A DNA stretch of 63,131 nucleotides, the filler included. It is 4 parts of 4 records of this genome, joined end to end, with 100 filler letters (N's around TTAATTAATTAA, not from the genome) between each part and the next. Parts side by side here need not be neighbours in the genome. Positions count along the whole stretch, not along the records: positions 1 to 21,436 come from SRR31156797_920; 3 more parts are not named here. One strand, written 5' to 3'. Within the stretch, counting starts at the first letter, position 1. Every line of letters begins with the position of its first letter. Shown in pieces: positions 1,723 through 21,818 of this stretch. Both the position numbers and the translations under genes were made by a program. The notes under the pieces were generated by a model that saw nothing but the letters and a program-made list of their open reading frames with translations, was not told the origin of the DNA and did not search any database.

Positions 1723-2520
1723 ATGACAACAGCGATGGAAAAACCCGATTCAAAAAAAGCAACGGCCATTCTCCAAGGTAGGATCGGCTCTACCCGTCTG
1801 CCAGGGAAAGTCTTTCTTCCTTTGCTTGGAAAACCGGTCATGCAGCACGTTTATGAAAGAATTCTCCACTGTCAAAACATCGACCGAATAATCGTTGCCA
1901 CGACCACCCTGGAAAGAGACGACCGTATTGTCGAGCTGTTCGACGGACTTGGCGTGCCGGTCTTTCGCGGGAGCGAAGCAGATCCTCTGGACCGTTACTA
2001 TCACGCTGCAACCCACCATGGTGCATCCCATGTGGTCCGAATTATGGCCGATTGTCCACTGGTGGATCCTGAGGTTGTGGATGAGGTCATTGAGATGTAC
2101 TTTGATGGCGGGTACGATTTCGGTTACCTTGGAGGCGAGTTTCCAACCGGACTGGACACGACGGTCTTTTCCTACAGGGCTCTGGAAAAATGCTTTAAGG
2201 AAGCCCAAAAAATATTGGAGCGAGAGCACATCACTTTTTACATGACAAACAATCCCGATCTATTCAAAATAGGTGTTTACGAAAAATTCAAGGGGCTTTT
2301 GCATCACCGTTGGGTGATGGATCACAAAGCCGACTACAACCTGGTCGTAGAGATCTACAAGGCGCTCTACGAGCCGGGCAAGGTTTTTGGAGCCAAGGAT
2401 GTGATGCGGTTGCTGGATGAGCAGCCCCAACTGTTCCGGATTAACGCTGAAATCCCCAGAAATGGAAGAATACCTGAAAACGGTTGCAGCCAAAAACGCA
2501 GTATCGACGGTCAGCCATGA
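1723..2520 (+). CDS. SpsF-like cytidylyltransferase (CMP-sugar-acid synthetase family)
   Basis: AILQGRIGSTRLPGKV, FRGSEADPLDRY, RIMADCPLVDP and REHIT motifs of the SpsF/CTP_transf_3 family. Confidence 0.85.
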   Translation: MTTAMEKPDSKKATAILQGRIGSTRLPGKVFLPLLGKPVMQHVYERILHCQNIDRIIVATTTLERDDRIVELFDGLGVPVFRGSEADPLDRYYHAATHHGASHVVRIMADCPLVDPEVVDEVIEMYFDGGYDFGYLGGEFPTGLDTTVFSYRALEKCFKEAQKILEREHITFYMTNNPDLFKIGVYEKFKGLLHHRWVMDHKADYNLVVEIYKALYEPGKVFGAKDVMRLLDEQPQLFRINAEIPRNGRIPENGCSQKRSIDGQP

Positions 2521-3860
2521 CAACCCGCAAGAACGATGAAAATGAAGTGACGGAACAAGATCTGAGAGAAGAGATTTTGCATCTTGTGGCCCGTTTTCAC
2601 AAAACCGGAAATATAAAAAGCCCATTCGTGCCCGGACAAACGCCTGTGAAGTATGCGGGAAGAGTCTTTGACGAAAAAGAAATTCAGGCTGCGGTAGAAT
2701 CCTCTCTCGATTTCTGGCTCACGGAGGGCCGTTTTGCGAAAAAATTCCAAACCGAACTTGCCCGGAAAATAGGCGTCAAACATGCTTTTCTGGTCAATTC
2801 AGGTTCTTCGGCGAATTTACTGGCCTTAACAGCCCTTACTTCCCCCCTGCTGGGGGAAAAGAGACTGAAACCGGGAGATGAAGTCATCACGGTTGCCGCC
2901 GGTTTTCCCACCACGCTGAACCCGATTATCCAGAATCGCCTGGTTCCCGTTTTTGTGGACGTGGATATCCCCTCATATAATGCAAAGGTTGAAGAGGTAG
3001 CGGCCGCAGTCAGCTCCAAAACACGTGCGATTTTCATTGCCCATACATTGGGAAACCCCTTCGACCTTGAGCGGATCATGAAAATCGTCGAGAAATACGG
3101 GCTCTACCTCATTGAGGATAACTGCGACAGCCTGGGCTCCACCTATAACGGCCAAAACACGGGCGCCTTCGGGCATCTCTCCACATGTTCCTTTTATCCC
3201 GCTCACCATATCACCACCGGTGAAGGGGGCGCCGTGCTGACCTCCGACCCTGAAATCGCCCGAATCATCCGGTCCCTGAAAGATTGGGGAAGGGATTGTT
3301 ATTGCGGGCCGGGTGAAAACAACAAATGCGGAGTCAGATTTTCGGGGCAACACGGCACATTGCCACAAGGGTTTGATCACAAATATGTCTATTCTCACAT
3401 GGGCTACAATTTAAAGATGACCGATATTCAGGCTGCCATCGGTTTGGAACAACTGAAGAAACTGGATACATTCTGTCAGGCGCGGCGTGAAAACTTTGAA
3501 GCCTGGATGAAGGGATTCAGGGAGTACGAGGAACATTTCATCCTGCCGGAAGCGACGGAAGGCTCAAATCCCGCTTGGTTTGCATTTCCCATTACCGTCA
3601 GGGCGAACGCCGGCTTTACGAGAACTCAATTAACGCATTACCTGGATGAACATCTCATCGAAACCAGGAACCTGTTCGGGGGCAACCTGCTGCGCCAGCC
3701 TGCTTACCGAGGCATCCCACATCGTAAAATAGGCGATTTAAGAAATACGGATATAATCATGAACAGCACCTTTTTCCTTGGAACTTTCCCAGGGATTGGC
3801 GATGAACAGATAGAATATACGATGAATGTCATCGAAAAATTTCTGATCTCACGAGCATGA
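2517..3860 (+). CDS. rfbH: CDP-4-keto-6-deoxyglucose 3-dehydrase (E1, PMP/Fe-S dependent)
   Basis: NSGSSANLLA; SFYPAHHITTGEGG (His in place of the aminotransferase Lys); DWGRDCYC...C cluster; FDHKYVYSH. The ATG at 2517 overlaps the previous TGA. Confidence 0.93.
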   Translation: MTTRKNDENEVTEQDLREEILHLVARFHKTGNIKSPFVPGQTPVKYAGRVFDEKEIQAAVESSLDFWLTEGRFAKKFQTELARKIGVKHAFLVNSGSSANLLALTALTSPLLGEKRLKPGDEVITVAAGFPTTLNPIIQNRLVPVFVDVDIPSYNAKVEEVAAAVSSKTRAIFIAHTLGNPFDLERIMKIVEKYGLYLIEDNCDSLGSTYNGQNTGAFGHLSTCSFYPAHHITTGEGGAVLTSDPEIARIIRSLKDWGRDCYCGPGENNKCGVRFSGQHGTLPQGFDHKYVYSHMGYNLKMTDIQAAIGLEQLKKLDTFCQARRENFEAWMKGFREYEEHFILPEATEGSNPAWFAFPITVRANAGFTRTQLTHYLDEHLIETRNLFGGNLLRQPAYRGIPHRKIGDLRNTDIIMNSTFFLGTFPGIGDEQIEYTMNVIEKFLISRA

Positions 3861-3863
3861 CCC

Positions 3864-4949
3864 ATGTTTACCAATGTATTTAAGGATAAGACGGTTCTGG
3901 TGACCGGACACACCGGATTCAAGGGTTCCTGGCTTTGCATATGGCTGAGAGAATTGGGCGCCAAGGTTGTCGGGTATGCCCTGGAACCTTACACGGAAAG
4001 AGACAATTATGTCGTCGCCGGGCTAAAGAACAGAATGGACAACATAATCGGGGACATAAATGATTTCAATAGACTGAAAAACCTTTTTGATGAATATCAA
4101 CCTGAGTTTGTTTTCCATCTTGCCGCCCAAGCAATTGTTCGTGAATCTTACGACTATCCAAAAGAGACTTTTGACATTAATATCGGAGGAACGGTGAATG
4201 TTCTTGAATGCTGTCGTTTATCCGATTCCGTCAGGGTCATTATTAATGTAACAAGCGACAAGTGCTATGAAAACCGAGAATGGGTTTGGGGATATCGAGA
4301 AGATGATCCCATGGGCGGTTATGACCCCTACAGCTCAAGCAAAGGATGTTCGGAATTTGTAACCCGAGCCTATCGAAAGTCTTTTTTCAATCCGGATAAT
4401 TTCCAAGTTCACCAAAAGAGTCTTTCGTCGGTAAGGGCGGGAAACGTAATTGGCGGCGGCGACTGGCAACGATTCAGAATTATTCCGGATTGCATGAGGG
4501 CGTTGGAGTCCAACAAGCCCATTGAGGTCCGCAATCCCATGGCAATTCGCCCTTGGCAGCATGTTTTGGGTCCGCTCAGCGGATATCTGCGTTTGGCAGA
4601 AATGATGTACGTAAGCCCGAAAAGATTCTGCTGCGCCTGGAATTTTGGGCCTAATCATGACTCAATCATACCGGTTGGCGAAGTGGTGGACAAAGTAGTG
4701 GGGTGTTGGGGAAACGGAAGCTGGATAAATTTATCCCCAATACAGGCGCCGCATGAAGCGGAATTGCTCAACCTTGATATCGCCAAAGCCAAATCTTATT
4801 TAAAATGGTTTCCCGTTTGGAATATAGATAAAACAATAGAAAAAACAATTGCCTGGTATAAAGAGTATAGGGATAAAGATCCTTACGGCATATGCGTGGA
4901 TCAAATCGAGGAATTTCAAGATTTGACAAGAGGGCATCACAATGATTGA
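3864..4949 (+). CDS. rfbG: CDP-glucose 4,6-dehydratase
   Basis: VTGHTGFKGSWL, TSDKCYEN, DPYSSSK, RAGNVIGGGDW, RPWQHVL. Confidence 0.95.
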   Translation: MFTNVFKDKTVLVTGHTGFKGSWLCIWLRELGAKVVGYALEPYTERDNYVVAGLKNRMDNIIGDINDFNRLKNLFDEYQPEFVFHLAAQAIVRESYDYPKETFDINIGGTVNVLECCRLSDSVRVIINVTSDKCYENREWVWGYREDDPMGGYDPYSSSKGCSEFVTRAYRKSFFNPDNFQVHQKSLSSVRAGNVIGGGDWQRFRIIPDCMRALESNKPIEVRNPMAIRPWQHVLGPLSGYLRLAEMMYVSPKRFCCAWNFGPNHDSIIPVGEVVDKVVGCWGNGSWINLSPIQAPHEAELLNLDIAKAKSYLKWFPVWNIDKTIEKTIAWYKEYRDKDPYGICVDQIEEFQDLTRGHHND

Positions 4950-5733
4950 AAACATTCCAGTCGTAATACTGTGCGGTGGTCTCGGAACAAGATTACGAGA
5001 AGAAACCGAATTCATACCAAAGCCAATGGTGGTCATCGGCAAAAAGCCGATCCTGTGGCACATCATGAAAATTTATGCCCACTATGGATTTCGTAAATTC
5101 ATCTTCTGTTTGGGATACAAAGGTGAAATGATCAAGGAATATTTCATTCATTATGAAATGATGAACAACGATGTTACCATCGGGTTGGGACCCAACAAAG
5201 GGGTCGAGATACACAATGACAACAATGAAGAAAACTGGGAGATAACCCTGTGCGATACCGGGGCAAACGCACTGAAAGGCGCCAGAATTAAGAGAATCGA
5301 AAAATATATCGATTCGGACCATTTCATGGTGACATATGGAGACGGCGTTGCGGATGTGAACCTGGAAGCGCTGCTTCAATTCCATAAATCCCATGGTAAA
5401 ATCGCCACCGTCACGGGCGTCCGCCCCAAGTTTCTGAAATTCGGGGAACTGAATATCCAGGAGGGGAAGGTAACGCGGTTTACGGAGAAACCCAAATACG
5501 GAGGCAATTACGTAAACGGCGGGTTTTTCGTTTTTAACCGCGGGCTGTTTGATTACCTTGAAGACAGGGATGATTGTGAACTGGAAACGGATCCTTTGGA
5601 TCGAATATCCCAGCAAGGCGAACTGATGGTCTATAAACACAATGGGTTTTGGGCCTGCATGGATACCATCAGAGATGCCGAGTATTTGAACAATTTGTGG
5701 AACAATGACCGGCCGGCATGGAAAATCTGGTGA
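4942..5733 (+). CDS. rfbF: Glucose-1-phosphate cytidylyltransferase
   Basis: ILCGGLGTRLREETEFIPKPMV, LGYKGEMIKEYF, TYGDGVAD, HNGFWACMDT. Confidence 0.95.
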   Translation: MIENIPVVILCGGLGTRLREETEFIPKPMVVIGKKPILWHIMKIYAHYGFRKFIFCLGYKGEMIKEYFIHYEMMNNDVTIGLGPNKGVEIHNDNNEENWEITLCDTGANALKGARIKRIEKYIDSDHFMVTYGDGVADVNLEALLQFHKSHGKIATVTGVRPKFLKFGELNIQEGKVTRFTEKPKYGGNYVNGGFFVFNRGLFDYLEDRDDCELETDPLDRISQQGELMVYKHNGFWACMDTIRDAEYLNNLWNNDRPAWKIW

Positions 5734-5783
5734 ATGAGAACCATCGCCGGAATCAACAATCCATATAAAACAAGGATAATCAT

Positions 5784-6632
5784 ATGAGTATTTTTATTAC
5801 GGCGGAAATAGGCATTAACCATAACGGCGATTTGGATATCACCAAACAATTGATCGATGTGGCCAAATTGGCAGGGGCCGACGCGGTGAAATTCCAGAAA
5901 AGATCCATTGAAAAGGTTTATTCGAAAAAAGAATTGGATAAACCGAGAGAAAGCCCATGGGGAACCACCACGAGGGAACAGAAATTAGGTCTGGAATTCG
6001 GTAAAAATGAGTTTGATGAAATCGATCGATATTGTAAGGAAAAGGGGATCGAGTGGTTTGCGTCTGCTTGGGATCTGGAAAGCCAGGAATTCTTGCGCCA
6101 ATATGATCTGAGGCATAATAAGATCGCCTCCGCCTTGACCACCTATCAAGACTTGCTGCAGGAGGTGGCTTCTGAAAAAAAGCACACTTTTATTTCCACC
6201 GGCATGTGCAGTCTGGAAATGATCGACCGTGCCGTGGAAATATTTCGGAACGCGGATTGCCCGTTTGAACTGATGCATTGCGTATCCACCTATCCCACCA
6301 TCGATGAGGACGCCAATTTAAATTGCATTCCGGTATTGCGAAACCGCTACCGATGCGACGTGGGTTACAGCGGACATGAGGTGGGACAAGCGGTCTCCTA
6401 CGCGGCGGCCGCATTGGGCATCACATCGTTGGAGCGACATATCACCCTTAATCGCGCCTTATACGGTTCCGATCAGGCAGCCTCCATTGAACCGGCACTC
6501 TTCATTCAGTTGGTGGGCGGCATCAGAAAAATTGAAAAGGCCATGGGAGACGGGGTGATCAAAATCAGTGACAACGAAGTACCCATTGCCAAAAAGTTAA
6601 GATCTCACATTCCATGGGAATCTCACAAATAA
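5784..6632 (+). CDS. NeuB/SpsE-family PEP-dependent ulosonic acid synthase (short form, no C-terminal SAF domain)
   Basis: AEIGINHNGD, ADAVKFQKR, KIASA, ISTGM, MHCVSTYP, GYSGHE, ERHITL, GSDQAAS; only 282 aa. Confidence 0.9.
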   Translation: MSIFITAEIGINHNGDLDITKQLIDVAKLAGADAVKFQKRSIEKVYSKKELDKPRESPWGTTTREQKLGLEFGKNEFDEIDRYCKEKGIEWFASAWDLESQEFLRQYDLRHNKIASALTTYQDLLQEVASEKKHTFISTGMCSLEMIDRAVEIFRNADCPFELMHCVSTYPTIDEDANLNCIPVLRNRYRCDVGYSGHEVGQAVSYAAAALGITSLERHITLNRALYGSDQAASIEPALFIQLVGGIRKIEKAMGDGVIKISDNEVPIAKKLRSHIPWESHK

Positions 6633-8404
6633 TGGTCAAGCTCTCCGATTACGTCATGAATTTTCTGGTCTCAAAGGGCGTCTCAAAGGTTTTCATGTTG
6701 CCCGGAGGCGGCGCCATGCACCTTGATGATTCATTGGGACGCTACGAAGCGTTGCAATACACCTGTTTTATGCACGAACAGGCATTGGCCATTGCCGCTG
6801 AAGCCTATGGGCAGCATGTGAATTTTCCGGGAGTCGGTTTGGTCACATCCGGTCCCGGCAGCACAAACACCCTAACGGCGGTAGCCGCGGCTTTCATTGA
6901 TTCAACCCCCTGCTTCTTCATTTCCGGACAGGCTAAACGCGCCGACCTGAAGGGCGATACCGGGGTACGGCAAATGGGTTCACAGGAGGTAGATATTGTC
7001 TCCATGGTCAAAAGCGTGACCAAATATGCGGCGACCATCCTGAACCCCGAAGATGTCCGATTTCACCTGGAAAAGGCCTGGACTGAAGCCACCTCCGGCC
7101 GCATGGGGCCCGTCTGGCTGGATATCCCCCTGGACGTGCAGGGCGCTCACATCGACGAAACCGGTCTTCGCGGTTATGCACCCCCCGAATCGTGCCGGTC
7201 AAAGCTTCCACTGGACCGGATAGCCAGAGCTTTCGAGGGCTCCCAACGTCCGCTGATCCTGGTGGGAAACGGGGTGAAGCTTTCGGGTGCCTCTGACCTT
7301 GTCAGAAAATTTGCCGAAAAGTATCAAATCCCCATGGTGCTGACATGGAAAACAGCCGATTTTCTTGATTACGATCATCCCCTCAATTTCGGGTTCCCCG
7401 GCATTATGGGGAGCCGTTATGCAAATTTCATCATTCAGAACAGTGATGTGCTCCTGATTCTCGGCAGTCGGCTCGATCCCAGCCTGACCGCTTTCAACAG
7501 TGCCGATTTCGGTCGCAACGCCTTTAAAATCATGGTCGATATCGATCCGGCGGAGATCAGGAAGATCCAAAATATCGATTTGAGGATCACGGCGGATATC
7601 AGCGAAGCAATGGGGGCTATGGCACAAATACCCATGACGCTGCCGGAGCATTCAAAGTGGCTGGAATATTGCGTCAAACTCAAAAATCGATATCCGGTGT
7701 TTCCAGGCAACGCATCGGCAAACAAAGACGTCGATTTGTATGGGTTCACGGACAGACTTTTTGATCAGTTGCTTAAAACGGACATCATCGTTCCGGAGAG
7801 TTCGGGTGCCGCGGGGGAAGTGACCTATCAGGCCATGCGGGCAAAGTACGGTCAAAGCATCAAGAATGCGGCGGGCCTCGGTTCCATGGGATTCGGGCTC
7901 CCTTACGCCATCGGTTCATGCCTTGCACTGGATCGACGACGAACCATCCTGATCAATGGCGACGGTGCGTTTCAACTCAACATCCAGGAACTGGAAACCG
8001 TCCACCGGCTGCAACTCCCCATCAAGATGTTTATTTTTGATAACGGCGGTTACCAGAGCATCATTAATACCCAGCGCAATATGTTCGGCGGTTTCCTGGT
8101 GGGGGCGGATGCCTCAAGCGGCTTTACCCTGCCGGATATTTGTGCAATCACAAAGGCTTACAAAATCAGAACATCCGTGATTTCAACCAATGACGAACTG
8201 TCGCCGGGCATTGCCGAAGTATTGAAAGGCGATGACCCGGTGCTTTGCCGGGTGAAGGTAAGGCGCGACCAATTGACCATTCCGAAAGTGCAGGCCATGA
8301 AGCTGCCGGACGGAGGGATGGTCTCCAAACCCCTGGAGGATATGTGGCCCTATCTGCCGCCGGAGGAGTTGGCGGAAAACATGAGGATCAGCGCCGATGA
8401 TTAA
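6632..8404 (+). CDS. Thiamine diphosphate-dependent enzyme, YerE/acetolactate-synthase-like (putative sugar acyl-branching enzyme)
   Basis: GGGAMHLDDS, HEQALAIAAEAY, VTSGPGSTN, GPVWLDIPLDVQ, GDGAFQLNIQE...NGGY ThDP motif and C-terminal SKPLEDMWP. It lies among CDP-3,6-dideoxyhexose genes. The likely start is 6632, overlapping the previous TAA. Confidence 0.85.
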   Translation: MVKLSDYVMNFLVSKGVSKVFMLPGGGAMHLDDSLGRYEALQYTCFMHEQALAIAAEAYGQHVNFPGVGLVTSGPGSTNTLTAVAAAFIDSTPCFFISGQAKRADLKGDTGVRQMGSQEVDIVSMVKSVTKYAATILNPEDVRFHLEKAWTEATSGRMGPVWLDIPLDVQGAHIDETGLRGYAPPESCRSKLPLDRIARAFEGSQRPLILVGNGVKLSGASDLVRKFAEKYQIPMVLTWKTADFLDYDHPLNFGFPGIMGSRYANFIIQNSDVLLILGSRLDPSLTAFNSADFGRNAFKIMVDIDPAEIRKIQNIDLRITADISEAMGAMAQIPMTLPEHSKWLEYCVKLKNRYPVFPGNASANKDVDLYGFTDRLFDQLLKTDIIVPESSGAAGEVTYQAMRAKYGQSIKNAAGLGSMGFGLPYAIGSCLALDRRRTILINGDGAFQLNIQELETVHRLQLPIKMFIFDNGGYQSIINTQRNMFGGFLVGADASSGFTLPDICAITKAYKIRTSVISTNDELSPGIAEVLKGDDPVLCRVKVRRDQLTIPKVQAMKLPDGGMVSKPLEDMWPYLPPEELAENMRISADD

Positions 8405-8870
8405 GATGGTTCTACTGGACATCGACGGCGTACTGACGGATGGCAAGGTGACGGTCGATTCGGCCGGAAACGAATCCAAAACCATCGATTTCAAGGATAT
8501 CGACGCCATATTTGAAATGAAGCGGCAAGGTCTGAAAGTGGGATTGATCACCGGTGAAGATACGCCCATCACCCTCTTTTTCAGGAACCGTTTCAAACCG
8601 GATTTCTTTTTCAACGGCTGCAAGGATAAACCGGCTGCTTTGAAGGAAATACTCGCTCAAACCGGGGCTGCTCCGGAAGAGGTCTGCTACGTGGGCGACG
8701 GCAAACACGACATCCCCATCATGAAGCTTGTCAAGTTTGCGGCATGTCCTGCGAACGCCATTCCCCAAGTCAGGAAACTCTCGAACATTCTTCTTGCACA
8801 CAATGGCGGGGACGGCTGCGTGTGGGAACTCATGGAATGGATTTTGGCGCGGAAAAATCATGGATCTTGA
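8397..8870 (+). CDS. KdsC-like HAD phosphatase (ulosonate-phosphate phosphatase family)
   Basis: LDIDGVLTDG, ITGE, KDK, YVGDGKHD, PANA, GGDGCVWE. Confidence 0.87.
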   Translation: MIKMVLLDIDGVLTDGKVTVDSAGNESKTIDFKDIDAIFEMKRQGLKVGLITGEDTPITLFFRNRFKPDFFFNGCKDKPAALKEILAQTGAAPEEVCYVGDGKHDIPIMKLVKFAACPANAIPQVRKLSNILLAHNGGDGCVWELMEWILARKNHGS

Positions 8871-9384
8871 TGACGCAATCGCCTTTCTGGAAGCGCAATG
8901 CGAAAATCCCCGTTCGGGACTCCCGGAGAAGGTCTTTCTGCTCCTTACGCGCCTGACGCCCATGGTCAACGTTGATCTTTTGATCAAAGATAACGCTGAG
9001 CGCACGCTTCTGACCTGGCGCGATGATATTTACCATGGCGCCGGCTGGCACATCCCGGGGGGCGTCATCCGCTTCAAGGAGACCGCCGCCCAGCGCATCG
9101 CCGCCGTCGCAAGGCTGGAACTGAATTGTGATCTCACCGCGGAGGACCGCCCCACGGCGCTCAATGAGTGCATTTCGGAAACGCAACGCAACCGGGGGCA
9201 TGCGGTTTCCCTTCTCTACCGCTGCACATTGACTTCGCCGCCGTCGAAAGAATTGAAATATCCCGGCGGAAAACCTCACCCGGGCATGTTCCATTACTTT
9301 GACCGCGCGCCTGAAAATCTACTGGAAGTTCATCATATGTACCGAAAATACATCGGCCCACAATCGAGGTTAAAAAATGGCTGA
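8860..9384 (+). CDS. Nudix hydrolase, GDP-mannose mannosyl hydrolase-like
   Basis: TPMVNVDLLI and WHIPGGVIRFKETAAQRIAAVARLEL (variant Nudix box of NDP-sugar hydrolases). The likely start is ATG 8860. Confidence 0.75.
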   Translation: MDLDDAIAFLEAQCENPRSGLPEKVFLLLTRLTPMVNVDLLIKDNAERTLLTWRDDIYHGAGWHIPGGVIRFKETAAQRIAAVARLELNCDLTAEDRPTALNECISETQRNRGHAVSLLYRCTLTSPPSKELKYPGGKPHPGMFHYFDRAPENLLEVHHMYRKYIGPQSRLKNG

Positions 9385-10444
9385 AGCAGAAGGAAAACAG
9401 AAATTTGAAAACGCCAAACGGAACAAGTTGCAACAGGAAAAACCGCTGGTGTACGAAAAGATCATCAAACTGGCGGACATGGAAAAAAGGGGAGAATGCA
9501 CCTCCCGCATCGACATCGGGTACAACTACGCCTGCAACCTGAAGTGCAAACATTGCATGGCGAACACCTTTCAGAAAAAAGATCGATCCCTTACCCCCGC
9601 GGACATGCGCAGCATCGCCGAACAGGCTGACGCCCTCGGTTGGTGCCAGTTTAACATCTCCGGCGGCGAGCCCTTGATTTTGAAAAACTTTGATGAGGTT
9701 TTGGAGGCCTTGATGCCTGAAAAATTTCATATCGGCATCAGCACCAACGGCTATTACCTGACCGCCGAAAAGGCCAAGCATCTGAAATCGATCGGTTTGG
9801 ACAAGGTCATGATAAGCCTTGACAGCTATGACGAAGCGCTCCACAACGCAAACCGCGCAAATGACGGTGCCTATGAAAAAGCTGTAAACGCCATCTGGAA
9901 CGCGCGGAACGCCGGCCTCGACACCATCATACAGCATGTAATCACCCATGAAAACGCCAGAACGGAGAACACTGTTAAACTGGCTAAATTCTCACAAGAA
10001 AACGGGTTTTCCCTGGATCTGGTCATTGCCAAGGCCATCGGCCAGTGGGAGGGACGGCATGACGTCCTCATTGACGCCGGGGACGCTAAATTTCTGCGTG
10101 AACTCAACAAGGAATACCCGGTGGCCCGTAGGGACGTATTTCCTTCCTACGGCATGCGCGGTGGGTGCGGCGTTCTGAAAAAATGCTTCCACATTTCCCA
10201 GTACGGCGACGTGTTCCCGTGCGTCTTCATGCATGTGACCATCGGCAATATCTTTGAGGACTCCTTGAAAACCATTGTGGACCGCGGAATGGGGATCAGA
10301 CACTTCAAGGATTTCTCCCCCATCTGTCTGACGGGAGAAAACCGCGACTTCATAAAAAAATACATGTCCAGGTTTTACGGCAAACCGCTGCCGGTGGATT
10401 ACCGCGAAGTATTCATTGACGAAGACGACTTTGTCAGGGAATGA
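9377..10444 (+). CDS. Radical SAM protein with SPASM/twitch-like C-terminus
   Basis: CNLKCKHC, SGGEP, ISTNG, ISLDS; C-terminal GCG...HISQYGDVFPC...IGNI. Confidence 0.9.
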   Translation: MAEAEGKQKFENAKRNKLQQEKPLVYEKIIKLADMEKRGECTSRIDIGYNYACNLKCKHCMANTFQKKDRSLTPADMRSIAEQADALGWCQFNISGGEPLILKNFDEVLEALMPEKFHIGISTNGYYLTAEKAKHLKSIGLDKVMISLDSYDEALHNANRANDGAYEKAVNAIWNARNAGLDTIIQHVITHENARTENTVKLAKFSQENGFSLDLVIAKAIGQWEGRHDVLIDAGDAKFLRELNKEYPVARRDVFPSYGMRGGCGVLKKCFHISQYGDVFPCVFMHVTIGNIFEDSLKTIVDRGMGIRHFKDFSPICLTGENRDFIKKYMSRFYGKPLPVDYREVFIDEDDFVRE

Positions 10445-11421
10445 AAATGGCTGCGATTAAACAATATTCCCATCTGAAAGAGAACCGGATCAGTCTGCGT
10501 GATGCCATACCCCTCGCCAAACCCTTTACGATTCTTTTCGAGCCGGCAAGCGTCTGCAATTTCAAATGTCTCTGCTGTTTTCATAACGAACCGGACATCA
10601 GCTCCCATCTCCCAAAGGGGCTCATGGAATTCGAGGATTTCAAAAAGATTGCGGACGATCTGGCGGAATGGGAAGGAGACAAACTCAAAGTCATCCGCAT
10701 CATCGGCTTCGGCGAACCGCTGATCAATCCGGACACTCCGCGGATGGTGAAATATCTAAAAAAGCTGGACGTGGCCGAAAGGATCGAAATCACCACCAAC
10801 GCTTCCCTGATGACGCCGAAACGCTCACTGCAACTGATCGATTCGGGGCTTGATTACATTCGGTGTTCCATATATGCCGTTGATCAAGAAAAGCATGAGG
10901 CTTTGACCCAAAACAGAATCAGCATTGAAAAGATTAAGAAAAACATCGCGACGTTAAAAGAATTGCGCGATACAGCCGGCGCTTCGAAACCATTCATTTA
11001 CATAAAGATGCTTGAAAACCGGAATAAACCGGAAAACAATTTCTTTCTGAAGGAATATGCTGCCGTTGCGGACGAGACGGCCATTGAAAAACCCCATCAA
11101 TGGTTGTCAAATAAAGGTTCCGCACCCGGAAAAATGCGGCGCGTCTGCCCCCAGCCCTTCAAAATGCTCAGCATTCATTTTAACGGCAACGTTATCCTTT
11201 GCGATCCCGACTGGAAGGGGAACACCTGCGTCGGGAACGCGCTTTCGGAAAAAATTTCTTCCATTTGGGGGGGGTGCAAAATGCATGAATTCTGGAGGAT
11301 GCAGCTTGAAAACAGACGGCACGAAAATAAAAGCTGTCGGAACTGCTCCTTCCTCATGGATGAATACGCCATCGACGACCTTGACGGCGTTTCACCCCAT
11401 GTACTGGTTGCCGGGCGATAG
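10441..11421 (+). CDS. Radical SAM/SPASM-type protein (type A, paralog of 13786-14796)
   Basis: CNFKCLCC, GFGEPL, ITTNASL; C-terminal CPQPF...GNVILC...CRNC. Confidence 0.9.
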   Translation: MKMAAIKQYSHLKENRISLRDAIPLAKPFTILFEPASVCNFKCLCCFHNEPDISSHLPKGLMEFEDFKKIADDLAEWEGDKLKVIRIIGFGEPLINPDTPRMVKYLKKLDVAERIEITTNASLMTPKRSLQLIDSGLDYIRCSIYAVDQEKHEALTQNRISIEKIKKNIATLKELRDTAGASKPFIYIKMLENRNKPENNFFLKEYAAVADETAIEKPHQWLSNKGSAPGKMRRVCPQPFKMLSIHFNGNVILCDPDWKGNTCVGNALSEKISSIWGGCKMHEFWRMQLENRRHENKSCRNCSFLMDEYAIDDLDGVSPHVLVAGR

Positions 11422-11423
11422 AA

Positions 11424-12599
11424 ATGAATTTCCTTGAAACAGTCACCACCAGTTCCAAGCCGGTTGTTGTTTTCGGAGCCTCCGTCATGGGAAAGATTCT
11501 TCTTGATGCCCTTGACTTATTGAACGTCCGGCCCGTCTGTTTCTGCGATAACGACCTTCGAAAGCAACAAAAGCCGTTTCACGGGTATAAAGTAATCTCT
11601 TTTAAAAAACTCTGCGCGGATCATTCGGAAGCGCTTATGGTCATTGCCGCGGGGCGTTATTTCAACGAAATCAGAGATCAGCTTTCAAATGCCGGGTTTA
11701 TGAAGGTTTTTAGTGATTCGGATGTCATCGGCAGTATTGATTTCAAAAACACGCCCCATTCAAGGCTAAAAAAAATCATTTGGCACCTGGCCAAGCTGGG
11801 AAAGCTTGGCGAAATAATGGACCTGCCCGTCGACGGCCTTCATGTGCCAAGACTGAACGTGGTTGTTACATCGCGCTGCACTTTGAAGTGCAGACATTGC
11901 TCCAGTTTAATGCCCCACTATGGGACGTCATCGGATTTCGACACATCCATAATCCTGGCTTCACTGGATCGCCTATTCGCATGTACGGACCTGATCTATC
12001 ATGTGGAACTCCTGGGCGGCGAACCTTTCTTAAACAGAAACCTTTTTGTAATCGTAAAGCATCTATTGAATTCGAAACGCATCCTTCATATAGACGTTAT
12101 TACAAACGGAACGGTTCTGCCGCCGGACAGGGTTCTGGATTCCTTGAAACACGACGCCGTAAGCGTGGTTATCGACGATTACGAAAAATTATCGTATAAA
12201 ATAGAAGTGTTATCGGAAAATCTGGAACGTAGAGGCATCGATTTTCACGTCAACAGACACTGGGCATGGGCGGATCTCGGCGGCTTTGAACCCAGGCATC
12301 GCACTGAAAAACAGTTGACGCGACGATTTAACCAATGCAATTTCAACACCTGCACTGAACTGATCGAGGGGAAACTGCACCGCTGTCCACGCTCATCGCA
12401 CGGCACGCGGACGGGGGTCATCCCCGAATACCCCGAAGACTTCCTCAACATCCAGGATGCGTCCGTAAACATTGATGGTCTGAAGGAACAGCTCAAAGCC
12501 TTTCTTCATGATAAGAAATTCATTCGCGCTTGCGATCATTGCGACGGGAACAACAGCGCGTCGCTTATGCTGACGCCCGCGGAGCAACAAAAAAGGTGA
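11424..12599 (+). CDS. Radical SAM protein with N-terminal Rossmann-like module (type B, paralog of 15833-17113)
   Basis: N-terminal VVVFGAS...FCDND..KQ...HGYKV; CTLKCRHC; LLGGEPFL; ITNGT; C-terminal GKLHRC...ACDHC. Confidence 0.88.
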   Translation: MNFLETVTTSSKPVVVFGASVMGKILLDALDLLNVRPVCFCDNDLRKQQKPFHGYKVISFKKLCADHSEALMVIAAGRYFNEIRDQLSNAGFMKVFSDSDVIGSIDFKNTPHSRLKKIIWHLAKLGKLGEIMDLPVDGLHVPRLNVVVTSRCTLKCRHCSSLMPHYGTSSDFDTSIILASLDRLFACTDLIYHVELLGGEPFLNRNLFVIVKHLLNSKRILHIDVITNGTVLPPDRVLDSLKHDAVSVVIDDYEKLSYKIEVLSENLERRGIDFHVNRHWAWADLGGFEPRHRTEKQLTRRFNQCNFNTCTELIEGKLHRCPRSSHGTRTGVIPEYPEDFLNIQDASVNIDGLKEQLKAFLHDKKFIRACDHCDGNNSASLMLTPAEQQKR

Positions 12600-12605
12600 G
12601 AGACC

Positions 12606-13757
12606 ATGACTGACAAAAAAAAATGCCGGGCGTGCGGAAATAAGTTCGGCGAAGAAAGCCTTCTTCGCCTGCCGGATATGCCAGGCGCCGTCCAAAACCT
12701 ACCCGACCATAAAGATGAGGCCATTGCTTCCGGTGTTGTTCTGGATGTAAGAGAATGCTCCCATTGCGGGCTGGTACAGCTTAACAACGATCCCGTCCCC
12801 TATTATAAAGACGTTATCAGGGCGGCAAGTTCTTCGCCCTCCATGAGGGCGCGGCAACATGATGAGTTCAAAGCATTCATTGAACGATTTTCCCTCGAAG
12901 GGAAAAACATTCTGGAAATCGGGTCCGGACGCGGAGAATACCTTTCCATTCTAAAGGAACTCCCCGTCAAGGCCTACGGCATGGAACATAACCGGGAATT
13001 CAGCGAAATCGCAAATGAGAAGGGGTTGAAGACTTTCCGGGCATATCCAACGGATGTGCGGGGACCGGTGGGCGGAATATTGTTCGACGCTTTCATTTCA
13101 ATCAATTTCCTCGAGCATGCGCCTGATCCTGGCGCCTTTCTGCGCGCCTCGGCCAATCTCTTAACGGAAAACGGGGTCGGAATGATCGGTGTTCCCGACT
13201 TTGAATTCGAGTTGAAGGATAATTTCCTTTTCAGTTTCATGAGTGACCACCTCTCTTATTTTTCAACCCATTCCCTGCGCAACACCTTGACATTTAACGG
13301 TTTTGAAGTCATTGACATATTCAGGAACAAAAAGCTGAATGTGGTGACGGCATATTTCAGAAAGCCCTGCCAATGCGACCTTTCAGTCCCCAAGGATAGA
13401 TTTTTTAATTTCAACCAACAGATTAACGACTATATGGATTCGATTCTGAAAAACGGTGGACGGATCGCCCTTTGGGGCGCCAGTCACCTGGCTTTCAGCA
13501 TCATTTCGGCATCAAAAACAGCCAATAAGATTTCATACATCGTTGATTCCGCGCCTTTTAAGCAGGGAAAATTTTCACCGGCATCCGGGTTGGCGATATT
13601 TCCGCCGCAATATTTGTCCGAAGATCCCGTTGATGCCGTTATTGTCATGTGTCCTGAATATTCAGACGAGATCGTGTCAAGCATTAGGGAAAATTTCTCT
13701 CAAGCGGTTAAAAATATTGCAACGTTTATAAATGGTAAGATTCAGATAGTATTATGA
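12606..13757 (+). CDS. NDP-sugar C-methyltransferase-like class I SAM methyltransferase
   Basis: N-terminal CRAC...CSHCGLVQL zinc module; LEIGSGRG SAM motif; FLEHAPDP; DHLSYF; C-terminal WGASH...IVDSAPFKQGK (C-methyltransferase C-terminal domain). Confidence 0.82.
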   Translation: MTDKKKCRACGNKFGEESLLRLPDMPGAVQNLPDHKDEAIASGVVLDVRECSHCGLVQLNNDPVPYYKDVIRAASSSPSMRARQHDEFKAFIERFSLEGKNILEIGSGRGEYLSILKELPVKAYGMEHNREFSEIANEKGLKTFRAYPTDVRGPVGGILFDAFISINFLEHAPDPGAFLRASANLLTENGVGMIGVPDFEFELKDNFLFSFMSDHLSYFSTHSLRNTLTFNGFEVIDIFRNKKLNVVTAYFRKPCQCDLSVPKDRFFNFNQQINDYMDSILKNGGRIALWGASHLAFSIISASKTANKISYIVDSAPFKQGKFSPASGLAIFPPQYLSEDPVDAVIVMCPEYSDEIVSSIRENFSQAVKNIATFINGKIQIVL

Positions 13758-13785
13758 TAATTGATACGCAATAGGAGTTTTTATA

Positions 13786-14796
13786 ATGGCCGAAATAAAA
13801 GATAAAAAAGCCACTGAAAGAACGAGGCTTGAAACTGTAATACCCCTTGAAACGCCTTTCGAATTACAGTTGGCCGTCGCAAGCAACTGCAACTTCAAAT
13901 GTATTTTTTGTCCTTGTTCCGACATAAAATCATTAAGAAAGGCAAATGTTAAAAAGGGAATTATGAATTTTGACCTTTATAAAAAGATAATTGACGATCT
14001 TGATGAATTCCCTGAAAAAATAAAAGTTTTGCGTTTGATGAGAGAAGGCGAACCGTTGTTAAATAAAAGGTTCCCCGACATGGTGCGCTACGCTAAAAAA
14101 AAGCAGCCTTCCGTGAAGGTTGACACAACAACCAATGCAAGTCTCCTGACGCCGGAATTTTCGGATGACATCATAGACTCCGGGCTGGATAAAATAGGGA
14201 TTTCACTCCAAGGCATGAACGCTGAAGCTTATAAAAGGGTTTCCGGCGTCGACATTGATTTTGACAGATTCATGGAAAATGTGATTTATTTTTGTGAAAA
14301 TCGAAAGAACTGTAAAGTCTTTATCAAGGTGCCGGACATCGGCGTTAATGAAGCCGAGGAAAAGGCTTTTTTTCAATTGTTTGATCAGTATGCCGACGAA
14401 ATGTTCGTGGAACGGATTTTTCCCGCATGGCCCAATTTTGAGGTTTCACACGTCAAAAAAAATGACGGCATCGGATACTATGGCCGTCCGGTTCTTGACG
14501 CACCGGTTAAAGTCTGCACGTTGCCGTTCTATGATTTGACGGTTTCCCATGAAGGGATCGTTACCGCATGTTCCATTGATTGGGAACAAAAAACCAATTT
14601 GGGCGATGTCAGCAACCATAGTTTATACAAAATCTGGAACGGAAAACGTTTTAACGATTTCAGACGGATGCAATTAAAGGGAAACAGACGTCAAGATTTG
14701 TTGTGTGGAAAATGCGACTCGCTGGAGTATTGCGAGCCTGATATCATTGATGATTACAGTGATATGTTGCTTGAAAAATACGAAACTTTGCCATAA
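13786..14796 (+). CDS. Radical SAM/SPASM-type protein (type A)
   Basis: CNFKCIFC, REGEPLL, TTTNASLL; C-terminal CTLPF...GIVTAC...CGKC. Confidence 0.9.
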   Translation: MAEIKDKKATERTRLETVIPLETPFELQLAVASNCNFKCIFCPCSDIKSLRKANVKKGIMNFDLYKKIIDDLDEFPEKIKVLRLMREGEPLLNKRFPDMVRYAKKKQPSVKVDTTTNASLLTPEFSDDIIDSGLDKIGISLQGMNAEAYKRVSGVDIDFDRFMENVIYFCENRKNCKVFIKVPDIGVNEAEEKAFFQLFDQYADEMFVERIFPAWPNFEVSHVKKNDGIGYYGRPVLDAPVKVCTLPFYDLTVSHEGIVTACSIDWEQKTNLGDVSNHSLYKIWNGKRFNDFRRMQLKGNRRQDLLCGKCDSLEYCEPDIIDDYSDMLLEKYETLP

Positions 14797-14863
14797 TTCC
14801 TGTGAAGACTTTGCGCCATAAGGTCAAATTTTTTCAGTTGCACACAATAGGAGAAGATTCATA

Positions 14864-15781
14864 ATGCGGAACAAGCGGATATTCATCACCGGTGGAACCG
14901 GATTCTTCGGAAAAAGCATCATACGCCACTGCCGTGAAATAAAGGAAAATAATATCGTCATTCTTTCCCGCAACCCTGAAAAGCGAAAAGAAGAGTTTAA
15001 AGATCTGTTGAAGGATGGGTTGAGCGCCAATATAGATTTTTTGGGTGGAGACGTCAGGAATTTCGACTTTCCGGAAGGCGATTTCGACTATATTATCCAC
15101 GGCGCCGCGACTTCAGGCAAAATAATACCGGACAATGAAATGCTTTCAGTGGTGATTGACGGCACAAAGCGTGTTCTTGAATTCGCGTCGAACAACGCAC
15201 ATCTTTCCAATCTGCTTTATGTCAGTTCCGGCGCCGTTTACGGGAACAAACATAATGTTCCCTTAGGTGAGGATTTATCCTGCGAACCGGTCAACGTCTA
15301 TGGCCGGTCCAAACTGGAAGCTGAAAAACAATGCATTGATTCCGGAATCCCTTGCAGCATCGCCCGCTGCTTCGCTTTCGTCGGCGAATACCTGCCCCTG
15401 GATGAGCACTTTGCCATCGGTAATTTTATTCGTGACTGCCTAGACAATCAGCCCATCATCATCAAAGGGGACGGTTCGCCCATTCGGACCTATCTTTATT
15501 CAGGCGACCTTGCCCATTGGCTATGGATTATATTGCTTAACGGCAAACCCGGACGGATCTATAACGTCGGTTCTGATCAGGAAGTTTCAATCGGCGGACT
15601 GGCCGATATTGTTCGAAAGGCCGCGGGAACAGCCAACGAAATAAAGATCTTATCGCCACCCTCAGACGAAAATCCACACCGCTATTCACCGGATATATCA
15701 CGAATTCGCCGTGAACTCGGGCTCAAGGAAGAAACCTCCCTTGATCAGGCAATCCGTTTAACGCTCGCACATCATGTTTAA
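14864..15781 (+). CDS. NAD-dependent epimerase/dehydratase/reductase (extended SDR)
   Basis: ITGGTGFFG, IHGAA, SSGAVYG, YGRSK (YxxxK), ARCFAFVG. Confidence 0.9.
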   Translation: MRNKRIFITGGTGFFGKSIIRHCREIKENNIVILSRNPEKRKEEFKDLLKDGLSANIDFLGGDVRNFDFPEGDFDYIIHGAATSGKIIPDNEMLSVVIDGTKRVLEFASNNAHLSNLLYVSSGAVYGNKHNVPLGEDLSCEPVNVYGRSKLEAEKQCIDSGIPCSIARCFAFVGEYLPLDEHFAIGNFIRDCLDNQPIIIKGDGSPIRTYLYSGDLAHWLWIILLNGKPGRIYNVGSDQEVSIGGLADIVRKAAGTANEIKILSPPSDENPHRYSPDISRIRRELGLKEETSLDQAIRLTLAHHV

Positions 15782-15832: not shown

Positions 15833-17113
15833 ATGTCTGCCGATAACACTTTTGCCGGATACAATTTAGAACGCATTCTTTCTTACGATGTTGACGGTCT
15901 TACAAGCGAAATGAGATCGCGATCTTCGTCGGTCGTCCTGTTTGGTGCGGGCCTGATCGCCAGATATGCTTTAACCGCTCTAAAATCGCACGACGTCCGG
16001 GTGGATTACGTTTGCGACAGCGACGAACGAAAACAGGGAAAGATTTTCTGTGGTTATGAAATCACGACGCTATCCAGCTTGGCGGCCACGACGCCTGACG
16101 CATTTGTTCTTATTTGCAGCAGTTCGCTCGGCCCGATGCTCTCAACTCTTGAATCCTTGGGCTTCAGGAATGTCTTTAGCTGTATCTCCATTTTTGAAAG
16201 AACGAATTTTTCAAAGTTATATTTTAGCAAGGATGATCTAAAACATATCGGTACAGCCGGGATTGACCGCGATATCCAAATATATTGCCTCGAGTTGAGA
16301 CAGTTTGCCAATAAAAACAGACCTGACGGGCTTAAATTGCCAATCATCGACATCGTCGTCACGGAAGCCTGCTCCATGAAGTGCAAAGATTGCTCAAACC
16401 TGATGCAATACTACGCCCACCCGAAACACTGCCGATTAAATGTTCTTTTTGAATCGATTGATAAAATAATGAAATCCGTGGATTGGGTTTCCGAATTTCG
16501 TGTCATTGGGGGGGAGCCATTTTTAAATAAAAATATTGGAAAAGTAATCGAAAAACTTCTTGAATACGATAACGCGGACAAAATTGTAATATATACAAAC
16601 GCTACAATCGTGCCAAAAGGAAATAATTTGCAATGTTTGAAAAACAGCAGGGTTCAAATTGACATAACCAATTACGGCCTCCTTTCCAGAAAATATGATG
16701 AATTATCCAAAATATTTGAAATCGAAGGCATATCTTACGCCACCAAAATACCTAAATGGACAGATTCAGGTAGGATATTGCCCTGCCAACAAAAATCAAG
16801 AGAACAAATTGAGGATTTGTTCTTTAAATGTTGTACGAATGATGTTTTCACACTTCTACATGGAAAACTCTATCACTGTGCATTCTCCGCTCATGCAATG
16901 AATCTAAAGGCGATCCCCCTTAATGGAGAAGATGTAATTGACGTTAACGAGGAATCAGAGGGACATGGATTGCGTCATAAAATAGACCAGTTTTATAAGA
17001 AAAAAAATTGCTTAACGGCTTGCTCCTATTGCAGTGGACGCGATTACAGTACGCCATTTATCGAACCTGCCATACAAACAAAAAAACCGCTGCCCTTACC
17101 CACAAATTCCTAA
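15833..17113 (+). CDS. Radical SAM protein with N-terminal Rossmann-like module (type B)
   Basis: VVLFGAG...VCDSD..KQG..FCGYEI; CSMKCKDC; IGGEPFL; YTNAT; GKLYHC...ACSYC. Confidence 0.88.
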   Translation: MSADNTFAGYNLERILSYDVDGLTSEMRSRSSSVVLFGAGLIARYALTALKSHDVRVDYVCDSDERKQGKIFCGYEITTLSSLAATTPDAFVLICSSSLGPMLSTLESLGFRNVFSCISIFERTNFSKLYFSKDDLKHIGTAGIDRDIQIYCLELRQFANKNRPDGLKLPIIDIVVTEACSMKCKDCSNLMQYYAHPKHCRLNVLFESIDKIMKSVDWVSEFRVIGGEPFLNKNIGKVIEKLLEYDNADKIVIYTNATIVPKGNNLQCLKNSRVQIDITNYGLLSRKYDELSKIFEIEGISYATKIPKWTDSGRILPCQQKSREQIEDLFFKCCTNDVFTLLHGKLYHCAFSAHAMNLKAIPLNGEDVIDVNEESEGHGLRHKIDQFYKKKNCLTACSYCSGRDYSTPFIEPAIQTKKPLPLPTNS

Positions 17114-21436: not shown

Positions 21437-21536
21437 NNNNNNNNNNNNNNNNNNNNNNNNNNNNNNNNNNNNNNNNNNNNTTAATTAATTAANNNNNNNN
21501 NNNNNNNNNNNNNNNNNNNNNNNNNNNNNNNNNNNN
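21437..21536. other. Artificial contig spacer
   Basis: N-run + TTAATTAATTAA (stops in all six frames) + N-run, 100 nt. Confidence 0.99.
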
Positions 21537-21818
21537 ATATTGCTAATATGAGATATTTTATATATATGTTTCTATTTTATCCGGCTGCAAAAGCACGTGC
21601 AGAAGACTCTGCAATAAAATGACGCAGAGTGCTTAAGTTTTTAAAGAGACAAGTATATGTAAAATAGTGCATTTACAAAGTAGGTTCAAATACATTGAAG
21701 ACGACTATGGGAGCACAGGGCCACAGGTAGAAAGACATATAATTCCATTAGTCCTTAAAGACCTATAGAATCAAATACGCAATTACCCATATTGCACTTA
21801 TCCGCGGAGACGTATAAA

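Follow-up and report, generated by a model that had tools for sequence, protein, structure and literature searches.

The window analysed here is a stretch of 63,131 nucleotides (nt) made up of four joined parts, and we are concerned with a cluster in it where genes for a cytidine diphosphate (CDP)-linked 3,6-dideoxyhexose stand beside those for a NeuB-like synthase, a YerE-like thiamine diphosphate (ThDP) enzyme and a phosphatase. Scans with the Pfam and NCBIfam models placed 17 genes on the plus strand between positions 1723 and 21484, with short gaps or overlapping stop and start codons between them, and this region is a real, translationally coupled sugar-building operon. All the genes that an earlier sequence-based description of the window (the original prediction) had named were recovered by these scans where it had put them; however, it had ended the operon at 15781, and the genes continue for about 5.7 kilobases (kb) to 21484 through a fifth radical S-adenosylmethionine (SAM) enzyme and two genes of glycosyltransferase family 2 (GT2). 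The same set of genes in this arrangement recurs in dozens of loci from many phyla, and it is therefore not a product of chance.

The operon opens with a gene for an SpsF/PseF-like CTP_transf_3 cytidylyltransferase (1723..2520; PF02348, 108.2 bits), whose stop codon overlaps the start of rfbH by 4 nt (ATGA). There follow genes for RfbH, the CDP-6-deoxy-4-hexulose 3-dehydrase or E1 (2517..3860; NF011936, 682.9 bits against a cut-off of 423), RfbG, the CDP-glucose 4,6-dehydratase (3864..4949; TIGR02622, 471.8 bits against 278.45), and RfbF, the glucose-1-phosphate cytidylyltransferase (4942..5733; TIGR02623, 333.1 bits against 300.25), each of which exceeds the cut-off of its equivalog model. 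This trio does precede the NeuB-like gene, as had been claimed, although its actual order is H-G-F rather than F-G-H. The central genes encode a 282-amino-acid (aa) NeuB-like, phosphoenolpyruvate (PEP)-dependent synthase that has no SAF domain (5784..6632; PF03102, 226.5 bits), a YerE-like ThDP carboligase with the TPP_enzyme_N/M/C domains PF02776/PF00205/PF02775 (6632..8404) and a HAD phosphatase resembling KdsC and the 9-phosphate (9-P) phosphatase of ketodeoxynonulosonic acid (KDN) (8397..8870; NF058599, 107.7 bits with a cut-off of 180; TIGR01670, 97.6 bits with a cut-off of 106.95). The open reading frame (ORF) of the ThDP enzyme opens at 6614, but the ATG at 6632 is its likely start because relatives carry a stop within the upstream extension (6614-6632). 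The overlapping stop and start codons described for these genes are found between the NeuB-like and ThDP genes (1 nt, TAATG) and between the ThDP and phosphatase genes (8 nt), whereas a gap of 50 nt separates rfbF from the NeuB-like gene. The short-chain dehydrogenase/reductase (SDR) that had been seen further on is an extended SDR (14864..15781; Epimerase, 116.9 bits), and between it and the phosphatase gene lie genes for a Nudix-like protein, a C-methyltransferase and four radical SAM enzymes.

RfbH of the window displays the pattern C203-X57-C261-X-C263-X7-C271, which we take to be the [2Fe-2S] motif of E1, and has ‘AHH’ at the position where aminotransferases have Lys; the C-X57-C-X-C-X7-C pattern, along with ‘AHH’, is also found in 49 of 51 full-length RfbH homologues. 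A homologue from a Saganbacteria bin (L005:6373-9144) is 923 aa long, with an intein bearing a LAGLIDADG endonuclease lodged inside its DegT domain.

The NeuB-like protein falls under the cut-offs of both the NeuB (238.7 < 399.65 bits) and the PseI (175 < 340.25 bits) models. Its best match in the PDB is 6ncs, which is likewise short (290 aa), and its ‘HCVSTYP’ and ‘GYSGHE’ motifs align with the same motifs in 6ncs and 8h2c, whose His residues presumably bind metal. In a tree of the NeuB family the SAF-less proteins form a single clade (support 99), separate from the SAF-bearing NeuB proteins. The phosphatase has the HAD motif DIDGV at residue 8 and stays below the cut-offs of both of its subfamily models. 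It is closest in the PDB to 3e81 (102.1 bits), with the KdsC entries at 55-70 bits; 3e81 is labelled ‘Acylneuraminate cytidylyltransferase’ in the PDB, though we take it to be the KDN-9-P phosphatase of Bacteroides thetaiotaomicron. This affinity leans towards a C9 rather than a C8 acid as the product of the two enzymes, without settling the matter.

The ThDP enzyme contains the motif GDG-X25-DN at residues 443-471 and the Glu of ‘MHEQ’. It scores below all models of acetohydroxyacid synthase (AHAS), the best score being 321.2 bits against a cut-off of 538.35 (TIGR00118), and its PDB matches descend from 8rph (337.6 bits) through 5ahk (260.7 bits), which we take to be PpYerE, to E. coli AHAS I (6lpi, 223.8 bits). 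The pertinent part of PMC12188165 identifies 8rph as JanthE. In three of five genomes with the cassette, a separate gene encodes an IlvB that exceeds the cut-off (832, 813 and 662 bits); of the other two, one has IlvB in two pieces and one has none above the cut-off. When a tree of 104 homologues was rooted on these copies, IlvB came out as a distant outgroup with a branch support of 100, and a ThDP tree of 116 rows agrees with that tree. Judged by its sequence, the enzyme is distinct from housekeeping acetolactate synthase: a grouping with the latter had been named as an outcome that would tell against the original prediction, and the sub-cut-off scores, the nearness to JanthE and PpYerE and the outgroup position of IlvB all point the other way. 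Its homologues number in the thousands, and some are at least 65% identical across phyla. Most likely, it would accept a CDP-4-keto sugar together with a 2-keto acid donor. Of its top two solved relatives, JanthE accepts longer donors and has a CDG motif in contrast to the GDG of the window enzyme, according to the relevant part of PMC12247030; the physiological substrates of JanthE and PpYerE are either not established or pyruvate. The hotspot residues of JanthE bear on acceptor and product rather than on the donor. In an Elusimicrobiales genome, one contig (G003 contig C11; L135, L137 and L142) carries, besides the YerE-like gene of the cassette, a 40%-identical paralogue about 78 kb away, with RfbH 35 kb farther.

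To place these genes in context, we gathered 130 related loci, 63 from species genomes and 67 from metagenomes, and searched them with the window proteins. Removal of six duplicates left 124 unique loci, and 110 of these have a ThDP gene with 53% or more identity to that of the window. Linkage was counted in the 66 of the 110 that have at least 2 kb upstream and at least 1 kb downstream of the ThDP gene, while the term large loci is used for the 38 related loci whose flanks reach at least 8 kb on either side. The NeuB-like gene is present in 64 of the 66 flanked loci and the phosphatase gene in 63, with both lying within 5 kb of the ThDP gene in 62; the exceptions are L042 and L086 (phosphatase not found), L070 (NeuB-like gene farther off) and L123 (neither). 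On the ThDP tree the linked clade comprises 88 rows (99 by the Shimodaira-Hasegawa-like approximate likelihood-ratio test, SH-aLRT), of which 76 have both neighbours, 10 have one, mostly at contig ends, and two have none; the 13 other non-IlvB rows have neither. At least two divergent ThDP lineages (L181, L186) also adjoin NeuB-like and phosphatase genes. Among the large loci, radical SAM enzymes 1 and 2 are each encoded in 31, the SDR in 29, the C-methyltransferase in 25, the Nudix-like protein in eight and the window-type cytidylyltransferase in none. In one common arrangement the SDR gene immediately precedes the NeuB-like, phosphatase and ThDP genes.

The YerE-like gene is also linked to the CDP-3,6-dideoxyhexose genes, being adjacent to them in the window and co-occurring with them across genomes. 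At least one rfb gene is present in 28 of the large loci, and all three in 19. Within 301 sampled genomes from the phylum of G005, a YerE-like gene (E<=1e-100) occurs in 16 and RfbH in 26; RfbH accompanies the YerE-like gene in 14 of those 16, mostly on the same contig within about 10 kb, and is found in 12 of the 285 others. The cassette is widespread; its hosts are mostly uncultured anaerobes of gut, rumen and sediment, and their phyla and groups, judged by record titles, include Lentisphaerota, Elusimicrobiota, Omnitrophota, Verrucomicrobiota, Planctomycetota and Selenomonadaceae. The titles of L010 and L049 point to Victivallis vadensis as a cultured carrier. In a Deferribacteres bin (L006:76-4701), the cassette directly follows flgI, flgJ, flgN, flgK, flgL and fliW, a position that hints at flagellar glycosylation in that organism; there are no flagellar genes in the window.

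Eight YerE-like loci annotated outside the linked clade are informative as to what the neighbours of the ThDP gene may do. An HpcH/HpaI aldolase gene adjoins the ThDP gene in six of them (L053, L054, L058, L059, L061, L062) and an HMGL-like aldolase gene in L045, bringing the aldolase-bearing loci to seven of the eight, with L060 having none; the six loci annotated within the clade encode no such aldolase. Next to the aldolase gene there is a HAD phosphatase gene in L053 and L054 and a PfkB kinase gene in L062. Since either an aldolase or a NeuB-type module holds the same place, a gene for the formation of a 2-keto acid next to the ThDP gene appears to be the rule, with only its family varying. 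Judging from its genes, a third form of the donor module is a NeuB-cupin fusion of about 500 aa, encoded upstream of a YerE-like gene of about 50% identity in L187 (8065-9591) and L188 (6686-8188). In L187, a gene for an NT5C-like phosphatase is inserted between the fusion and the ThDP gene, and a homologue of the Nudix-like gene comes right after the latter; both loci carry rfb genes and a C-methyltransferase gene. On the strength of the linkage to the ThDP gene, the rarity of the cytidylyltransferase and the aldolase in the equivalent place, it seems probable that the NeuB-like synthase and the phosphatase supply the 2-keto-acid donor of the ThDP enzyme, and the original prediction, which had proposed this, thereby gains comparative backing.

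The cytidylyltransferase at the head of the operon has a different distribution. Only its N-terminal half matches the KdsB models, far under their cut-offs, and its best PDB match is 6oew, labelled ‘Cytidylyltransferase’ (104.4 bits). A hidden Markov model (HMM) built from 23 diverse CTP_transf_3 sequences detected a gene of this family in three of the 130 loci: L064 and L065, the closest kin of the window, in which it shares 86% identity with that of the window and is once more the first gene of the operon, and L004. The L004 gene forms part of a distinct pathway that has a SAF-bearing NeuB of its own, along with a 2-epimerase, an aminotransferase and a PseB-like dehydratase. The synthase, phosphatase and cytidylyltransferase of the window type thus stand together only in the window, L064 and L065, and 127 of the 130 loci lack any CTP_transf_3 gene. 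Because of this absence, the sole nucleotide activation encoded in nearly all relatives is that with CDP by RfbF; where the ulosonate has no local activation of its own, it would reach a glycosyltransferase only by being built onto the CDP-sugar. Consumption of the NeuB product by the cytidylyltransferase alone, which had been named as a further outcome contrary to the original prediction, accords neither with these three loci out of 130 nor with the linkage to the ThDP gene in 62 of 66.

Homologues of the cytidylyltransferase at 37-44% identity were found in 75 of the 301 genomes (E<=1e-15), where they adjoin genes for NeuB with SAF, class III aminotransferases (Aminotran_3, often fused), aldo-keto reductases, DegT, PseB-like and Maf proteins; by this neighbourhood they sit in nonulosonate contexts, in which activation is of the cytidine monophosphate (CMP) type. 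Fusions of the cytidylyltransferase homologue to a class III aminotransferase, of about 683-749 aa, are seen in Thermodesulfobacteriota (L147, L152, L155, L156 and L169; e.g., L152:1477-3567). In L164 (1495-3710) and L168 (1501-3735) the homologue is followed by a split transketolase with N-terminal and pyrimidine-binding parts, and the genome of L164 (G062) has a SAF-less NeuB-like gene about 5 kb downstream (L185), as does, by coordinates, that of L168 (G099). From its gene content this arrangement may be another ThDP-based branching system.

Downstream of the phosphatase gene, the operon turns to genes that could act on or transfer the product. The Nudix-fold protein of 174 aa (8860..9384) has no Pfam match and is Gmm-like, in that a profile of 11 homologues matches the GDP-mannose mannosyl hydrolase structures 2i8t/1rya (E 4e-5, 26 bits). 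Radical SAM/SPASM enzyme 1 has a MoaA-like core (9377..10444; PF04055, 98.2 bits; SPASM, 28.6 bits) with CNLKCKHC at residue 53; enzyme 2 (10441..11421; PF04055, 58.1 bits; SPASM, 38.6 bits) and its paralogue, enzyme 4 (13786..14796; PF04055, 68.9 bits; SPASM, 49.9 bits), have the CxxxCxxC motif at residues 39 and 35, respectively. Radical SAM enzyme 3 (11424..12599; PF04055, 38.1 bits at residues 146-250; CxxxCxxC at residue 152) possesses an N-terminal Rossmann-like domain, with a weak match (27.6 bits) to the N-terminal domain of NeuD. The gene between enzymes 3 and 4 specifies a C-methyltransferase of nucleoside diphosphate (NDP)-sugars with the domain set of the TylC3/TcaB9 type (12606..13757; Methyltransf_23, 61.2 bits; Methyltransf_14, 46.2 bits; Methyltransf_13, 23.8 bits). 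Radical SAM enzyme 5 (15833..17113; Radical_SAM, 28.5 bits; Fer4_12, 28.7 bits) bears at its N-terminus a domain that resembles the sugar-nucleotide domain found at the C-terminus of such C-methyltransferases (Methyltransf_14, 20.5 bits at residues 23-94; 32.9 bits in the homologue from L004). The extended SDR, with its homologues in 29 of the 38 large loci, is a candidate for the reductase of the branch carbonyl, a YerF-like role. The operon ends with a GT2 glycosyltransferase (17131..18450; PF00535, 113.4 bits) and a large multi-domain GT2 protein (18518..21484; PF00535, 152 bits over three stretches), whose nearest named relatives are deltaproteobacterial.

Taken together, these genes probably make a CDP-activated 3,6-dideoxyhexose with a long acyl branch, a reading that draws its support from the comparison of loci. 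RfbF, RfbG and RfbH (E1) would carry glucose-1-phosphate towards CDP-4-keto-3,6-dideoxyglucose, as the family models indicate, with the electron donor of E1 presumably supplied by the cell and not by the cluster. The NeuB-like synthase would condense PEP with a sugar phosphate to yield a phosphorylated 2-keto-3-deoxy (ulosonic) acid, the HAD phosphatase would strip the phosphate from it, and the ThDP enzyme would decarboxylate the free acid to an acyl-anion equivalent and attach this at the C4 ketone of the CDP-sugar. Reduction of the new side-chain carbonyl would fall to the SDR, tailoring of the CDP-linked product to the C-methyltransferase together with the five radical SAM enzymes (in two of these the N-terminal domain is of the sugar-nucleotide type), and passage of the product to a surface acceptor to the two GT2 proteins. 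A C8 or C9 donor would give a sugar of 13 or 14 carbons before methylation. In the lineage of the window, the cytidylyltransferase would probably also divert part of the free ulosonate into a CMP form, a step that we propose with lower confidence. Our reading is that the NeuB-like synthase and the phosphatase constitute a module for a free ulosonic acid that would have two fates in nature, both of them encoded in the window. The fullest version of this scheme, in which the window makes a branched sugar of 13-14 carbons, C-methylated and remodelled by up to five radical SAM enzymes, and activates the same ulosonate with CMP, with one module thereby serving two glycosyl donors, is put forward tentatively, as a possibility that falls somewhat short of an even chance.

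Several observations weigh against this scheme. None of the 57 ORFs scanned in the window encodes a reductase of the E3/AscD type (Fer2 + FAD_binding_6 + NAD_binding_1), and none was likewise found in six annotated relative loci. As the cluster has no E3, RfbF, RfbG and RfbH alone do not finish the textbook route; the earlier statement that they make CDP-4-keto-3,6-dideoxyglucose was right about the identities of the genes but passed over the electron donor that E1 needs. In solution, ulosonic acids exist mostly as closed rings, which may make attack by the ThDP enzyme harder. The ThDP trees were built without ErwE, MyGE, MMAR_2332 and the YerE of Yersinia pseudotuberculosis. Ten of the 38 large loci have no rfb gene at all within 10 kb. 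The window cytidylyltransferase is translationally coupled to rfbH and makes up, with the NeuB-like synthase and the phosphatase, a complete three-gene route to a CMP-ulosonate. SAF-less NeuB-like genes of 58-75% identity stand beside a CTP_transf_3 gene with no YerE-like gene nearby (L177-L180, L182 and L183), and on the NeuB tree the ThDP-linked and cytidylyltransferase-linked SAF-less members are mixed, with both kinds in the well-supported set of 14 that includes the window protein. Moreover, a YerE-like gene (E<=1e-100) is missing from 17 of the 22 genomes of Thermodesulfobacteriota in the sample that have a SAF-less NeuB-like gene (at least 43% identity).

An alternative is that the operon makes two unconnected sugars, namely a CMP-activated ulosonate like KDN or 3-deoxy-D-manno-octulosonic acid (KDO) and a yersiniose-type CDP-sugar with a short, pyruvate-derived branch, their genes being interleaved to no mechanistic end. 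Under this alternative the three CMP-ulosonate genes, coupled in the window and in L064/L065, form a pathway of their own; the phosphatase is closest to 3e81, taken to be a KDN-9-P phosphatase; homologues of the cytidylyltransferase lie beside NeuB-family genes in eight of 23 annotated loci, two of which (L171, L173) have an adjacent Maf gene; and close SAF-less NeuB relatives partner CTP_transf_3 with YerE-like genes out of the picture. YerE itself takes pyruvate, as the relevant part of Steitz 2022 (PMC9306805) has it. Nevertheless, the ThDP gene has both the NeuB-like and the phosphatase gene as neighbours in 62 of 66 loci, when a CTP_transf_3 gene is present in three of 130, leaving most relatives with no cluster-encoded means of activating the ulosonate, and the aldolase in the equivalent place in seven of the eight loci outside the clade makes a donor-supply gene beside the ThDP gene the rule. 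We therefore regard the two-sugar explanation as unlikely, though deserving of serious notice. The CMP-ulosonate route, which the original prediction had itself offered as a competing reading, does not hold in general, with 127 of 130 loci lacking the cytidylyltransferase, but it stays alive for the lineage of the window.

A role for every gene of the window is provided by a further alternative, which follows the logic of pseudaminic and legionaminic acid synthesis: the CDP-sugar would first be branched and tailored; the Nudix-like protein and the HAD phosphatase would then free the sugar, the NeuB-like synthase would join it to PEP, and the cytidylyltransferase would activate it with CMP to give a branched nonulosonic-type acid. 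The resemblance of the Nudix-like protein to an NDP-sugar hydrolase (GDP-mannose mannosyl hydrolase, E 4e-5) and the nonulosonate contexts of the cytidylyltransferase homologues fit with it; yet the triad of NeuB-like, ThDP and phosphatase genes persists in related loci of which 127 of 130 have no cytidylyltransferase and just eight of the 38 large ones have the Nudix-like gene, and the phosphatase is of the ulosonate-phosphate (YrbI) group and not of the sugar-1-phosphatases. This makes the branched nonulosonate very improbable. Finally, the ThDP enzyme might act on the ulosonate alone, either as a decarboxylase yielding a 2-deoxy-aldose or in AHAS-like fashion with the ulosonate as acceptor, with no link to the CDP-sugar. 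Decarboxylases and AHAS are indeed members of its family, and the ten rfb-less large loci are as this would have it; but when the five genomes with an rfb-less locus that were searched whole are considered, RfbH above the cut-off lies elsewhere in four, the fifth being a bin of 1.6 Mb, and it is found in none of 14 control genomes. In addition, RfbH accompanies the YerE-like gene in 14 of 16 genomes, the best solved relatives of the enzyme are YerE-like enzymes that accept ketones, and the product would be left with no nucleotide activation. Action on the ulosonate alone thus strikes us as scarcely credible, and the long acyl-branched CDP-sugar is the reading that we prefer.

The donor half of the window pathway has its counterpart in the KDN pathway of B. 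thetaiotaomicron, which Wang et al. 2008 are said to have described as consisting of a KDN-9-P synthase, a KDN-9-P phosphatase and a CMP-KDN synthetase. The NeuB-family synthase, the YrbI-type HAD phosphatase and the CTP_transf_3 enzyme of that pathway all have window counterparts; however, 127 of the 130 related loci are without the cytidylyltransferase and the gene of a YerE-like ThDP enzyme sits between those of the synthase and the phosphatase. With the yersiniose A pathway of Y. pseudotuberculosis (DdhA-D, YerE, YerF), the window shares the homologues of RfbF/G/H, a ThDP enzyme for branching at C4 and, in the SDR, a candidate reductase. The yersiniose A cluster differs in having an E3 (DdhD) and is not known to carry NeuB-like, phosphatase or radical SAM genes. 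Its YerE uses pyruvate to produce a C2 branch, according to Steitz 2022 (PMC9306805).

The nearest precedent is the ‘unifying scheme’ set out in PMC9306805 for erwiniose (ErwE/F/I/J), caryophyllose (MMAR_2331/2332) and gastriose (MyGE/MygI/MygF). In the sections of that paper relevant here, these clusters share with the window the acceptor genes for CDP-4-keto-3,6-dideoxyglucose, a YerE-like ThDP carboligase, an adjacent enzyme for a functionalised 2-keto acid and glycosyltransferases; for their NAD(P)H-dependent reductase the extended SDR is the candidate counterpart. The same sections relate that the 2-keto acids used by ErwE, MMAR_2332 and MyGE are functionalised C4-C8 compounds formed by aldolases encoded nearby, that ErwE refuses pyruvate, that these acids are joined to CDP-4-keto-3,6-dideoxyglucose before a reductase step, and that a polyhydroxylated C8 2-keto acid is the proposed donor for gastriose (Steitz 2022, PMC9306805). 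The 2-keto acid of erwiniose and caryophyllose is there the work of pyruvate aldolases (BphI-like and of the aldolase/citrate-lyase family), whereas in the window the corresponding place is held by a SAF-less NeuB-family synthase with a HAD phosphatase; the window further adds five radical SAM enzymes, a C-methyltransferase and a Nudix-like protein, has no E3 in the cluster and belongs to a system whose hosts are mostly uncultured anaerobes. The kind of pathway is already known, with the window most likely representing a variant that extends the published scheme of acyl-branched sugars (Steitz 2022, PMC9306805). What is new lies in the donor supply by a NeuB-type synthase and a YrbI-type phosphatase, the heavy set of radical SAM enzymes, the missing E3 and the added cytidylyltransferase. 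Krug 2024, as cited in PMC12247030, surveyed more than 200 YerE-like clusters in silico, and clusters of the NeuB type may already be among these.

If the long acyl-branched reading is correct, the products of the cassette would rank among the largest known monosaccharides; PEP-dependent synthases of the NeuB type would feed YerE-like carboligases alongside the pyruvate aldolases; and a set of radical SAM enzymes acting on CDP-sugars would be indicated. The surface glycans of the hosts may then hold sugars that standard composition analysis would miss. The ThDP enzymes also merit attention as biocatalysts that could form tertiary alcohols with polyhydroxylated donors, a topic taken up in PMC12247030.

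As for the rest of the window, Rfam and tRNA scans of it detected nothing, and the scan for promoters and terminators remained at chance level (29 against 28.1 expected and 26 against 24.2 expected). An exact look-up of ten window proteins in the sequence collection returned no identical entry. Tetranucleotide frequencies correlate at 0.94 between the two halves of the sugar cluster and at 0.45-0.71 between the cluster and its flanks. The stretch at 21792-33297 has genes of archaeal type, for DUF2240, a short S2, Memo, a GHMP kinase, an amino-acid-kinase-family protein (IPK-like), FMN_dh (IDI2-like), an RNase J-like protein and polyprenyl synthase, while that at 35336-63131 has genes of bacterial type, for Pth, Prs, an IspE-like kinase, AccB/AccC, EF-P, a class A penicillin-binding protein (PBP), RlpA-SPOR and LysR. 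The window is thus a mosaic, being either an assembly chimera or a set of transferred islands. Upstream of its closest relative cluster, on the minus strand of L065 (3-314), are an HVO_A0114-family gene, the family being named after a Haloferax protein, and a response regulator gene. Both this neighbour and the right flank of the window look archaeal, whereas the search with the large GT2 protein points to deltaproteobacteria. Between the archaeal-type and bacterial-type genes, a 2-kb stretch with 32.6% G+C (33300-35330) contains an ORF with a SEC-C motif and one uncharacterised ORF and adjoins an H+-pyrophosphatase gene on the minus strand (35336-35968), which ends after about 183 of 645 profile positions; the region 33300-35968 may be a junction or an insertion point.

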